A stretch of 64,000 nt of DNA from Candidatus Bathyarchaeia archaeon. GTDB lineage: Archaea > Thermoproteota > Bathyarchaeia > Bathyarchaeales > Bathycorpusculaceae. Positions within the stretch are counted from its first letter, which is position 1, and every line of letters begins with the position of its first letter. Positions 57,640 to 61,982 of this stretch are shown here, in pieces. A model generated the notes under the pieces. It worked only from the letters and a program-made list of their open reading frames with translations. It was not told the DNA's origin and did not search any database. The translations under genes were made by a program, and so were the position numbers. Location: NCBI GenBank assembly GCA_038882955.1, contig JAVZNC010000006.1, forward strand, positions 1 to 64,000, given 5' to 3'.

Positions 57640-57714
57640 TGGGGCTGCCCGGATTTGAACCGGGGTCTAGAGCGCCCGAGGCTCCAAGCCTAGACCAAGC
57701 TAGCCGACAGCCCC
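57640..57714 (-). tRNA. tRNA-Pro(CGG)
   Basis: GGGGCTG...CAGCCCC-A; anticodon arm GGAGC-CTCGGGC-GCTCT. Confidence 0.95.
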
Positions 57715-57789
57715 TCTTTTTGGAAAGCATTTTAAATAGAGGGAGTCTTAACCTTTAAACCCTTACTCTGCAACTTTGCGTTTGAGGGG

Positions 57790-60003
57790 TTGATTGGAGT
57801 GTCTGTTGGTCAGCGTGTGCGTGGAGTTAAGGTGCTCAAGGCTGTTTCTTCGCCTGTCCGACTGCAGATTTTAAACTTACTTTTTGATAAGGGTTCGCTT
57901 TCTTATACTGAGCTTATGAGCGCGCTTAAGATGAGCCCAAGCAGAGACGCGGGCAGATTTGCTTATCACTTGAAGTTTTTGCTTAAGGCGGATTTGGTTG
58001 AGGCTGATGTTGAATCAAAGAAATATTGCCTAACAGATTTGGGGAAAATGGTTCTTGACGTCGCGGAAAGAATTGAGAAGAGGGCAATAAAACCAAGAGG
58101 ATTAGTTGTCCGCACTTCACGTTTAGCCCTAGAAGAGTTTGACGCAAACAAAATTGCAAACTCGCTTGTGAAGGAGGCGAAGATGCCAGACGACTTAGCT
58201 CAAAAGATTGCAAAAGAAGCTGAAAAACGTTTGCTAAAGTCAAAAACGAAGTATCTAACGGCGCCGTTGGTTAGGGAATTTGTCAACGCAATCCTAATAG
58301 AAAAGGGTCTAGAAGAGTATCGCCATAGGCTTACACGGTTGGGATTGCCAGTCTACGACGTAACAAACCTAATAGAGTCAAAAAGCAAGGGTTCACAGAA
58401 AACGGCTTCAATACATGAAAGTGCAGGCGCGGTGGTTTTTGAGGAGTATATGCTTTTACATGTTTTTCCAAGGGACATTGCAGATGCGCACTTGTCTGGG
58501 GCGCTGCACATTAAAAGTTTAAGCTCATGGACTTTAAAGCCAAGCGAAGTCATGCATGATTTAAGATTCTTCTTTCAAAACGGCGTAAACCTTGAAAAAA
58601 TAGACGCGCATAGATTTTCTTATTCACCACCAAAAAATCTGAATGAAGCCTTATCCCTAACGCTTAACGTAATTCAAAATTCAGCCAAGGAAACAGCCGA
58701 AAGCCAAACAATCGATTACTTCAACGTTTTCCTAGCACCATTTGCGACGGGCATGAACCCGCAAGATGTTAAGGAAGCGCTTAGACTTTTCGTTTTAAAT
58801 GCAAGTCAGGTGGAAAATTTTTCTTTAGGCTTGGAACTTACGATTCCAGAATTTGTGAAGGAGAAGCCAGCGGTTAGCCCAAATGGAAAACAAGCGGGTA
58901 AGTATGGCGACTTTGCAGTAGAAAGTCAACTTTTGGCTTCGCTTTTAATGGAAGTATTCGCCGAAGAGAGCGCCCAAAAACCACTGCTTAACCCAAAATT
59001 GATAGTGAAGCTGCGTTCAGAAACATTTGCAAACGAGAAAGCACGCGAATTGCTATTTAAGGCTCACAAGCTCGCATTGGAGCGCAGCCTACCCTACTTC
59101 GCAAACAACTTCGCAAAAAACCTAGAAGCCTCCGTGTTCTCGCATTCTGGTTTTAGATTGAACGTGGACATGAAGGGCGACTGGGAAATTGACACGTTGC
59201 GCACTGGATGCCTAGGATATGTCAACGTGAACATGCCGCGCATAGTAAACGAGTCTGAAGGAGACAAGCGAAAATTCTTGGAAATTCTTAAAGAAAGGCT
59301 TGAGATGGCAGCAAGAGCTCTTGAAATTAAGGATAAGGCTTTAAGACAGAGGTGCAGCGGCTTGCTGCCTTTCCTAATGCAGAACATTGATGGAGACCAT
59401 TATTTTAGGCTGGAAGGATGCTCGCGCATAATAAACATGGTTGGACTGAAAGAGGCAGCGGAAGCATTCTGTAAAAGCCCGTTCACAGACGAAAAGACTT
59501 TAGGATTCGCCGCAGAAGTTTTACAAGCTGCAGCAGATTACATGGCTAAAATTGGAAGACGCAAAAGACGCCTTTTTACTGCGCTGCTTCCAGATTTTGA
59601 GGCTTCAGAGCGCCTCGTGCAGTTGGACATTGAAAGATATGGCATCGCGAGGGTGCGATTTTCTGGAGCTAGGGAAAATCCATTCTATTCCACAGTAAGT
59701 CGAATGAGCCTTGATGGCGAAAAGTTCGTTGAAGCGTCTATGAGGTTCAAAAGTGTTTCTGGCAAACTTAATGGTGGAAACATAATCGTAATAGAAATTG
59801 AAGATTTCAAGGGAGGCGCCGAAGAGTTAATGGCATTAACCAGAGATATAGTAGAAAAGAAAATCCATGAATTCTTTACGTACAACCGCAAACTAACCTA
59901 TTGTGCGCGCTGTAAGAAAAGCTGGTATGGAATTAGGCACAAATGCCCATCATGTGAAACCACAGGCACATTAACGGTCTTTGACAGATTCGTACAAGTC
60001 TAG
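57790..60003 (+). CDS. ArsR-type wHTH + ATP-cone + class III RNR (NrdD)-like protein, apparently catalytically dead
   Basis: N-terminal LKAVSSPVRLQIL...FAYHLKFL...YCLTDLG; ATP cone VRTS...EEFDANKI; NrdD body (ADAHLSG, DTLRTG, NMPRI, CARC/CPSC); no MGCR and no RxxGY. Confidence 0.85.
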   Translation: MIGVSVGQRVRGVKVLKAVSSPVRLQILNLLFDKGSLSYTELMSALKMSPSRDAGRFAYHLKFLLKADLVEADVESKKYCLTDLGKMVLDVAERIEKRAIKPRGLVVRTSRLALEEFDANKIANSLVKEAKMPDDLAQKIAKEAEKRLLKSKTKYLTAPLVREFVNAILIEKGLEEYRHRLTRLGLPVYDVTNLIESKSKGSQKTASIHESAGAVVFEEYMLLHVFPRDIADAHLSGALHIKSLSSWTLKPSEVMHDLRFFFQNGVNLEKIDAHRFSYSPPKNLNEALSLTLNVIQNSAKETAESQTIDYFNVFLAPFATGMNPQDVKEALRLFVLNASQVENFSLGLELTIPEFVKEKPAVSPNGKQAGKYGDFAVESQLLASLLMEVFAEESAQKPLLNPKLIVKLRSETFANEKARELLFKAHKLALERSLPYFANNFAKNLEASVFSHSGFRLNVDMKGDWEIDTLRTGCLGYVNVNMPRIVNESEGDKRKFLEILKERLEMAARALEIKDKALRQRCSGLLPFLMQNIDGDHYFRLEGCSRIINMVGLKEAAEAFCKSPFTDEKTLGFAAEVLQAAADYMAKIGRRKRRLFTALLPDFEASERLVQLDIERYGIARVRFSGARENPFYSTVSRMSLDGEKFVEASMRFKSVSGKLNGGNIIVIEIEDFKGGAEELMALTRDIVEKKIHEFFTYNRKLTYCARCKKSWYGIRHKCPSCETTGTLTVFDRFVQV

Positions 60004-60006
60004 AGA

Positions 60007-60957
<951 letters not shown>

Positions 60958-61056: not shown

Positions 61057-61521
61057 ATGAGTGAAACTGTGTTGCATGTTTCAAAAATTAAGGATGGAAC
61101 AGTCATAGACCATATTACTGGCGGACATGCGTTGGATGTTGTCAAGATTTTGGGTATAACTGGGCGTGAAAAGCGTGTAATAACCATAGCGATTAATGTT
61201 CCTAGTAAGCGTTTCAAGGTTAAGGACATTGTGAAGGTTGAGGGCAGAGCGTTAAATCCGCAGGAAGTGCATAAGATTGCTTTGGTTGCTCCGCACGCGA
61301 CGATAAACATAATACGTGATTATAATGTTGTTGAGAAGCAGCGTGTTCAGCTTCCAAAAGTAATCGAAAACATTATTAAATGTGCGAACCCCGCGTGTAT
61401 AAGCAACAGCAACGAGCCTGTTCAAGCGAAGTTTTATGTTGAGAGTGAGGAGCCTTTGCTTTTGAAGTGTCATTATTGTGGTTATATTATGGAGAAGAAG
61501 GATGTTTTGGCGCAGTTTTAG
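61057..61521 (+). CDS. pyrI: Aspartate carbamoyltransferase regulatory subunit
   Basis: GTVIDHI, KDIVKVE and CANPAC...CHYC. Confidence 0.97.
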   Translation: MSETVLHVSKIKDGTVIDHITGGHALDVVKILGITGREKRVITIAINVPSKRFKVKDIVKVEGRALNPQEVHKIALVAPHATINIIRDYNVVEKQRVQLPKVIENIIKCANPACISNSNEPVQAKFYVESEEPLLLKCHYCGYIMEKKDVLAQF

Positions 61522-61655: not shown

Positions 61656-61982
61656 ATGTGGGAAATAATCACGTCCACAATATGGGCATGCTTCGCAGCC
61701 TACGCAACATGGTACTTTACATACGCAAAACACTTCGCCCCAATAACCTACAATGAAGCAAGAATCCTATGGAAAATCCACAAACAAAACACAAACTGTA
61801 ATGGACGAAGGTGGAGAGAAATCAAACGCAAAGAAGCAATAGTAGGCTTTGAATGCGAATGCGGATACAAACACATACAAAGACGCCCAATAGTAAGCGA
61901 ACTACCAAACACTAAAACCACGCTGGGAGACACAAGAAACATGGCAATCAAAAAACTCCACACAACATACGAATCAACATAA
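61656..61982 (+). CDS. Hypothetical protein with N-terminal TM and possible metal-binding His/Cys motif
   Basis: Hydrophobic N-terminus; H...C and CECG. Confidence 0.65.
   Translation: MWEIITSTIWACFAAYATWYFTYAKHFAPITYNEARILWKIHKQNTNCNGRRWREIKRKEAIVGFECECGYKHIQRRPIVSELPNTKTTLGDTRNMAIKKLHTTYEST

Follow-up and report, generated by a model that had tools for sequence, protein, structure and literature searches.

The window analysed here comprises 64,000 nucleotides (positions 1 to 64,000 of the forward strand) of contig JAVZNC010000006.1, designated C6 among the 31 contigs (1.54 Mb) of the genome assembly of a Candidatus Bathyarchaeia archaeon. Towards its 3' end, an open reading frame (ORF) encodes an ArsR-type winged helix-turn-helix (wHTH) domain, an ATP-cone-like domain, the barrel of a class III ribonucleotide reductase (RNR), NrdD, and a C-terminal zinc ribbon (Table 1). 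The barrel is devoid of the catalytic residues of NrdD, and the protein, hereafter wHTH-NrdD, may well act as a transcription regulator. Residue numbering counts from the TTG codon at 57790. An in-frame GTG codon at 57799 is preceded by GAGGGG (57784-57789) by 10 nt, and the database protein that is 100% identical to the query (P0001) contains 734 residues. GTG 57799 is therefore the likelier start, giving a protein of 734 residues.

Table 1. Features of the wHTH-NrdD locus in the window.
Feature	Position	Strand	Evidence or remark
tRNA-Pro (anticodon CGG)	57640-57714	-	directly upstream of the wHTH-NrdD gene
TATA-like TTTAAAC	57754-57760	+	TTTAAAC-type word upstream of the orthologue in 69/72 loci
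Whole ORF, wHTH + cone + non-catalytic NrdD	57790-60003	+	737 residues from TTG 57790
ArsR-type wHTH, residues 15-95	57832-58074	+	Pfam HTH_5 and DUF7347; model helices
ATP-cone-like domain, 'VRTS' type, residues 105-180	58102-58329	+	Pfam ATP-cone; hhalign
Class III RNR (NrdD) barrel without catalytic residues, residues 205-700	58402-59889	+	Pfam NRDD; Foldseek
Glu253 codon, at the position of T4 NrdD Cys79	58546-58548	+	BLASTP and profile alignment
Former finger loop HSGFRL, residues 452-457	59143-59160	+	Phe455 codon (59152-59154) at the thiyl-radical Cys position (T4 Cys290)
Zinc ribbon CxxC-x10-CxxC	59902-59955	+	Cys705, 708, 719 and 722, all kept
Remnant of the glycyl-radical motif, TVFDRFVQV then stop	59974-60003	+	Gln736 codon (59995-59997) at the radical Gly position
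pyrB (aspartate carbamoyltransferase)	60007-60954	-	tail-to-tail neighbour; TIGR00670, 403.8 bits
pyrI	61057-61521	+
108-residue ORF	61656-61982	+	Cys-rich motifs; no NCBIfam match

Domain architecture and predicted fold

A reading of the locus made by eye (hereafter the sequence-only reading) had described a fusion of a wHTH, an ATP-cone and an NrdD with its zinc ribbon, and this architecture is borne out by the Pfam domains, the structural model and the four ribbon cysteines. The N-terminal domain matches HTH_5 (PF01022) at residues 21-71 with 32.6 bits, for a cut-off of 22, and DUF7347 at residues 15-90 above the gathering score. In the AlphaFold2 model it comprises three helices (residues 22-34, 39-45 and 54-66) and two strands (residues 70-73 and 78-81) that form a beta wing; a DAG(R/K)FAYHL helix within it is near-invariant. 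The solved ArsR structure 6j05 was matched by profile (E 8.6e-4), and the metalloregulator subfamily NF033788 scored 34.8 bits, below its cut-off of 55. ATP-cone (PF03477) matches residues 107-177 with 32.4 bits (cut-off 25.8), and NRDD (PF13597) matches residues 207-733 with 210.7 bits, above the gathering score. The NrdD equivalog TIGR02487 gave 230.6 bits, under its cut-off of 326.35.

The AlphaFold2 model was computed from 141 sequences and has a mean predicted local distance difference test score (pLDDT) of 91.3 and a predicted template modelling score of 0.81. Its best Foldseek matches are class III RNRs throughout, including 9d3x (E 2.3e-26) and T4 NrdD (1hk8, template modelling score of 0.75 on the target). 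The ten-stranded barrel fold of NrdD is predicted with high confidence, and the N-terminal wHTH lies separate from the barrel. A predicted complex of two copies of core residues 205-700 scored 0.03 against a mark of 0.42, a value that counts neither way.

Loss of the catalytic residues

The active NrdD of the same genome aligns with wHTH-NrdD by BLASTP at 24% identity (E 4e-37), up to the zinc ribbon, where the alignment stops. PYCV of the active enzyme is paired with PSEV and SMCCRL with HSGFRL, Phe455 being paired with the second cysteine of SMCCRL. A profile of 28 family members was compared with solved structures, and T4 NrdD Cys79 was found to correspond to Glu253, MGC290R to G454-F455-R456 and Asn311 to Cys474; 79, 290 and 311 are what we take to be the T4 residue numbers. 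The R-x-x-G-Y motif of the P. copri and T. maritima NrdDs aligns by profile with R733-F-V-Q736-V737, followed by the stop codon. Glu, Phe and Gln are thus located at the positions of both catalytic cysteines and of the radical glycine, in accordance with the loss of catalytic residues claimed in the sequence-only reading. These alignments agree with its by-eye assignments, and its residue correspondences were therefore right, down to the coordinates of HSGFRL, which are exact for residues 452-457. The HxHD motif forms the substrate triphosphate site in NrdD, according to the available extracts of PMC11226230; in the profile alignment, HIHD of the P. copri enzyme is paired with H240-I-K242-S243, and the motif is lost from the core.

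Among 82 diverse full-length representatives that carry the wHTH, none keeps all three catalytic features, compared to 6 of 22 representatives without wHTH. None of the 82 has a cysteine within one column of the first catalytic position, 7 have one no more than two columns away from the finger position, and a regular expression for RxxGY matches 4. Within the family, the Glu253 position is occupied by T, E, S, N, D or V and the Phe455 position by L, I, S, V, E or T, and the short tail without glycine is common to all 36 close orthologues compared. These alignments make a solid case for a catalytically dead paralogue of NrdD that carries a conserved domain of DNA-binding type.

Conservation of the domains

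Conservation was assessed in the same 82 representatives as the mean frequency of the commonest residue and as the number of columns conserved at 80% or more. Conservation is highest in the cone (mean frequency 0.66; 29 of 76 columns), followed by the wHTH (0.51; 13 of 81), the barrel (0.35; 23 of 496) and the zinc ribbon with the tail, residues 701-737 (0.31; 4 of 37, which are the four cysteines). Purifying selection on the wHTH, which the sequence-only reading presupposed, is reflected in its conservation above that of the core. Conserved core residues across the family are Y220, D232, H234, G237, N481, P483, R484, G552, E555, R608, D613 and Y633. The positions of both catalytic cysteines and of the radical glycine vary freely, as do the counterpart of T4 Asn311 and, within HxHD, the second His and the Asp. 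Judged from these frequencies, selection falls on the non-enzymatic parts and the old active site drifts.

The cone-like domain aligns with a set of canonical ATP-cones by hhalign with a probability of 98.1% (E 1.4e-13, 71 columns); a single-sequence search with the cone alone retrieved no solved ATP-cone. In the cone of P. copri NrdD, Lys7 and Arg8 of the beta-hairpin contact the nucleotide phosphates, as described in the available extracts of PMC11226230. The corresponding hairpin of wHTH-NrdD reads V-R-T-S, with Thr109-Ser110 in place of the canonical Lys-Arg. In the 82 representatives, the Thr109 column contains T (63), R (9), S (6) and K (2), and the Ser110 column contains S (78) and T (4). 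The same 'VRTS' cone is present in the active NrdDs encoded next to the wHTH-NrdD gene at two loci of other archaea (L144 and L146). On the strength of the profile alignment, the domain is homologous to ATP-cones but non-canonical. The '(d)NTP-binding sensor' of the sequence-only reading is accordingly kept as a plausible function, for a cone in which the canonical binding residues are absent.

A single wHTH clade in a widespread archaeal family

At least 120 clusters with 62-100% identity to the query were returned by a word-index search. Of the 120 listed, 110 combine PF24038, which covers the N-terminal wHTH, with PF13597, in open frames of about 725-759 residues. The named clusters among those listed come from Bathyarchaeia and are labelled 'anaerobic ribonucleoside-triphosphate reductase' or 'ArsR family transcriptional regulator'. 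Orthologues thus conserve both the architecture (110 of 120) and the residue loss (none of the 82 fully catalytic), a point that the sequence-only reading had raised for checking. With so large and conserved a family, the gene is no accident of assembly. No description of the family was found in the literature searched, the supplementary tables of RNR papers lying outside that search.

We performed an exhaustive search of representatives at 50% identity, which gave 1747 matches, 347 with E values no higher than 1e-30. The wHTH is present in 93 of the 150 representatives listed, as detected with a custom hidden Markov model. In a FastTree phylogeny of 110 rows, a quick tree built with the wHTH columns removed and rooted on one long branch, all 87 rows with wHTH fall in one clade of 88 with a local support of 99. 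The active NrdDs P0178, P0180 and P0228 branch just outside this clade. These relatives possess an additional canonical cone at their N-terminus, and the wHTH therefore occupies the site of the first cone in wHTH-NrdD.

Contigs from one genome per species encode a relative in at least 587 of 600 candidate stretches, and the best 80 are all from Bathyarchaeia. We also searched 401 sampled genomes of the phylum with P0183, a sequence labelled Nitrososphaerota, accepting matches at E up to 1e-20. A match was observed in 251 of the 401 genomes, including 25 of 25 from the family of the window's genome and 56 of 56 from another family, f15; none was observed in four other families of the same sample (0/23, 0/16, 0/12 and 0/15). 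Source labels on the cluster of the query suggest that some carriers, and family f15 in particular, belong to the Nitrososphaerota; that the f15 carriers are ammonia oxidisers is a guess. More distant clusters bear the names Jordarchaeia/Freyarchaeota (Asgard), Thaumarchaeota/Nitrososphaerota and Ca. Terraquivivens.

The same tree contains two NrdD-like clades without finger-loop cysteine, glycine motif or wHTH, several members of which start with a canonical ATP-cone (P0241, P0247, P0218, P0238, P0243, P0246 and P0248 in one; P0190, P0193, P0219 and P0234 in the other). On their motifs, these may represent further families of pseudo-RNRs. Among active NrdDs, the closest frequently reach 1100-1700 residues and align with the query in 2-5 separate segments (P0173, P0175, P0179, P0181, P0212, P0224, P0237 and others), a pattern which suggests that they carry inserted elements such as inteins.

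Gene neighbourhoods

In Bathyarchaeia we compared 80 loci, the best 80 of the at least 587 related stretches. pyrB is localized immediately downstream of the wHTH-NrdD gene and convergent with it in 76 of them, separated by 0-93 bp. pyrI occurs in 35, and in 33 of these it follows the position of pyrB, on the plus strand and mostly about 1 kb further on. In family f15 the gene has another partner. A class I/II-type RNR gene encoding ATP-cone, Ribonuc_red_lgN and Ribonuc_red_lgC domains lies directly downstream on the same strand, at a gap of 98-575 bp, in 28 of 30 loci, the 30 genomes being close kin and no independent events.

The diverse contexts compared were 20 loci, drawn from 17 other families or genera. 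Three of these (L141, L142 and L145) have a class I/II-type RNR gene as their immediate downstream neighbour, and L142 has the wHTH-NrdD gene, the RNR gene and pyrB in this order on one strand. Three further loci (L144, L146 and L147) have an active nrdD directly downstream, whose product contains WSRITGYYQ or WSRVTGYYQ. At L147, an ORF for a glutaredoxin-like protein with a CPRC motif separates the two genes, which are followed by a convergent pyrB. In total, pyrB or pyrI was found in 12 of the 20 loci, and an RNR gene or pyrB/pyrI in 14. The position beside pyrB and pyrI pointed out in the sequence-only reading agrees with a gene-order link of the family to RNR and pyrimidine genes.

Other RNR genes in the same genomes

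The genome of the window contains a second PF13597 gene on contig C1 (660 bits), whose product carries SMCCRL and YSRVVGY; nrdG follows. The sole match to TIGR02495 (NrdG) over the cut-off in the genome is this neighbour of the active nrdD, and contig C6 has none. The sequence-only reading was hence correct that the window contains no nrdG, and the separate intact nrdD-nrdG pair it had asked about is present. A true NrdR of 148 residues (TIGR00244, 160.8 bits for a cut-off of 124.65) is encoded on the same contig (L001, 701-1147; G000, C1). The nrdR stop codon overlaps the nrdD start and nrdG comes next, forming an nrdR-nrdD-nrdG unit. A class I/II-type RNR gene is located on contig C4; translation of the sequence upstream (L121, upstream part of about 930 bases, G000) reveals a short rubredoxin-like ORF with two CxxC pairs before it.

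Families f15, f58 and f59 provided five complete genomes. In all five, wHTH-NrdD is the sole PF13597 match over the cut-off of the family; one further match elsewhere in G221 is below it, with 17.8 bits. These genomes have no active NrdD, and their wHTH-NrdD gene adjoins a class I/II-type RNR gene.

A candidate regulator of nucleotide-precursor genes

We consider it fairly probable that wHTH-NrdD is a DNA-binding transcription regulator tied to nucleotide-precursor genes and derived from a non-catalytic class III RNR paralogue. In related archaea the gene lies beside a working reductase gene or pyrimidine genes, and it therefore probably encodes an undescribed regulator of DNA-precursor synthesis. 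The ArsR-type wHTH, at the site of the first canonical ATP-cone, would bind DNA; it would act on RNR genes in many lineages and, in Bathyarchaeia, possibly on those of the pyrimidine pathway. The signal would be received by the cone-like domain, which is strongly conserved, with the dead barrel as scaffold. DNA binding, target genes, ligand and oligomeric state are what we infer in this scheme. More tentatively, and with the odds somewhat against it, the protein may govern the supply of deoxyribonucleotides and pyrimidines as a master regulator widespread among archaea. Such a regulator would have originated once from an archaeal NrdD, would control RNR genes of class III and of other classes, would respond to a nucleotide signal via the 'VRTS' cone and would represent the missing archaeal equivalent of the bacterial NrdR.

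Several observations weigh against a regulator of nucleotide-precursor genes. For nucleotide sensing, these are the Thr-Ser that replaces the Lys-Arg of the cone hairpin and the lost HxHD motif of the core. Six of the 20 diverse loci have neither an RNR nor a pyr gene. pyrB is convergent, and hence not co-transcribed with the wHTH-NrdD gene. Its position next to that gene may have been left over from an earlier gene order in which the wHTH-NrdD gene was followed by nrdD facing pyrB, as in L144 and L147; the order in the window looks like this arrangement minus the active nrdD. The genome also has a true NrdR already, in front of nrdD-nrdG. To these are added the results of the operator searches. 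The promoter of the wHTH-NrdD gene is well conserved among related loci, and its TTTAAAC may act as a TATA box; no operator was derived from the promoter comparisons. The promoter block occurs once in the genome, and no 8-mer is common to the wHTH-NrdD and pyrB promoters. A GTGTT-N4-AACAC palindrome beside the TATA box was rejected as operator, being present in 11 of 72 orthologous promoters (up to 2 mismatches), all in one subclade. In f15, A/T-rich boxes containing GATC recur in the wHTH-NrdD and RNR promoters; they were rejected too, since their clusters are not rarer genome-wide than the control (49, 30 and 121 versus 33, 44 and 33). Comparison of wHTH-NrdD and RNR promoters within a single genome gave AT-rich noise and unconnected small palindromes.

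The exact palindrome was also counted in the genomes of three relatives, which contain 2, 3 and 1 sites, one in each case in the promoter of their own wHTH-NrdD gene. Of the remaining sites, one is intergenic and two are intragenic. At about base 1501 of L122 (G401:C5), a second exact GTGTT-N4-AACAC abuts a TTTTAAATA box upstream of a 135-residue ORF, in the same layout as in the wHTH-NrdD promoter of that genome.

The alternatives differ in what is sensed, or in whether DNA is the target at all. A DNA-binding regulator could respond to a non-nucleotide signal, either redox state or a metal via the zinc ribbon or a protein partner, and its regulon need not be nucleotide metabolism. The lost Lys-Arg and HxHD residues would fit such a protein, as would the four ribbon cysteines, which are the only strongly conserved columns of the C-terminus, the six loci without RNR or pyr neighbour, and the position of the one other intergenic palindrome before the 135-residue ORF of a relative. 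We think this unlikely. The cone is the most conserved domain, neighbouring active NrdDs have the same 'VRTS' cone, and the links to RNR or pyrB/pyrI recur in the diverse loci (14 of 20), in f15 (RNR downstream in 28 of 30) and in Bathyarchaeia (pyrB in 76 of 80). A protein-level regulatory subunit, which would pair with an active NrdD or bind another RNR and modulate its activity, the wHTH being secondary, seems less likely still. NrdDs are dimers, and at L144, L146 and L147 an active paralogue of the same cone type is encoded directly downstream of the wHTH-NrdD gene. However, the five complete genomes carry the wHTH-NrdD gene without an active NrdD, which argues against the heterodimer proposed in the sequence-only reading, and the neighbouring gene in these genomes encodes an enzyme of another class, an RNR of class I/II type. 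In the genome of the window, moreover, the sole active NrdD belongs to another subgroup (24% identity) and has its own NrdR, and the wHTH is more conserved than the core, so that the sequence-only reading's heterodimer is disfavoured.

Use of the RNR barrel for another chemistry would be a very remote prospect. A few core residues are conserved across the family (the set from Y220 to Y633), but the catalytic positions vary freely with no conserved constellation in their place, which argues against a new enzymatic activity, and the neighbourhood contains no activase gene. Pseudogene decay, or an artefact of assembly or truncation, could be suspected from a C-terminus that ends one residue past the former glycine position, and is refuted by the at least 120 clusters at 62-100% identity with both domains in open frames in 110 of the 120 listed, by the identical short tail in 36 of 36 close orthologues and by the model pLDDT of 91.3. 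A regulator of nucleotide-precursor genes accordingly stays the explanation that we favour over these alternatives.

Relation to known systems

The closest functional analogy is with NrdR (TIGR00244), which represses RNR genes through a zinc ribbon and an ATP-cone. Like NrdR, wHTH-NrdD combines a nucleic-acid-binding module with a cone-type domain, and its gene lies beside RNR genes in many lineages. The two differ in that NrdR has about 150 residues, binds DNA with an N-terminal zinc ribbon and possesses a canonical cone, whereas wHTH-NrdD has 737 residues, a wHTH, a 'VRTS' cone without Lys-Arg and a whole dead RNR body; the NCBIfam search gave no TIGR00244 match for it. The analogy with NrdR drawn in the sequence-only reading holds as far as the cone-type domain and the RNR neighbours go. 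It does not extend to replacement, since a true NrdR coexists in the genome and wHTH-NrdD is therefore not simply its stand-in here. According to the available extracts of PMC9110341, NrdR occurs in most bacteria and only some archaea.

Active NrdDs with a 'VRTS' second cone (P0178, P0180 and P0228; L144 and L146) share the fold, the cone type and the zinc ribbon with wHTH-NrdD, with homology over residues 105-737, and the wHTH clade falls among them in the tree. Unlike them, wHTH-NrdD is without both cysteines, the radical Gly-Tyr and HxHD, carries the N-terminal wHTH and scores below the TIGR02487 cut-off. NrtR offers a parallel from another pathway. It is a regulator composed of a Nudix-like domain and a wHTH (PMC2330246), and it resembles wHTH-NrdD in concept, as an enzyme fold with lost or reduced catalysis that is joined to a wHTH and labelled in databases as the enzyme. 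NrtR differs in its enzyme fold and pathway, and its ligand and operators are known. The N-terminal 95 residues resemble ArsR/SmtB regulators by their match to HTH_5 (PF01022), but those regulators lack the about 640 further residues of wHTH-NrdD, which also lies below the cut-off of NF033788.

Transcriptional control of RNR genes is not settled in most archaea, and a pseudo-RNR of DNA-binding type encoded beside two RNR classes is a concrete candidate for it. If the interpretation is true, it would be a rare case of a whole radical enzyme recycled as sensor or scaffold. Databases label the family as reductase or ArsR regulator, and for this reason anaerobic synthesis of deoxynucleoside triphosphates may be wrongly attributed to Bathyarchaeia, Nitrososphaerota and Asgard archaea when their metabolism is reconstructed from genomes.

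Other features of the locus and of related loci

In the window, a 102-bp spacer separates pyrB and pyrI, which are divergent and do not form a pyrBI operon. A homologue of the 108-residue ORF is present in 25 of the 80 related loci, nearly always just past pyrI. The upstream protease gene is found in 8 of the 80. The tRNA-Pro gene upstream of the wHTH-NrdD gene leaves about 75 bp for the promoter, and the same tRNA-Pro sequence precedes the orthologue at many Bathyarchaeia loci. In the f15 loci (L091-L120), a conserved ORF of about 55 residues with two CxxC pairs, resembling a zinc ribbon, lies between genes for oligonucleotide/oligosaccharide-binding (OB)-fold and thiolase proteins and the wHTH-NrdD gene, just upstream of the latter.

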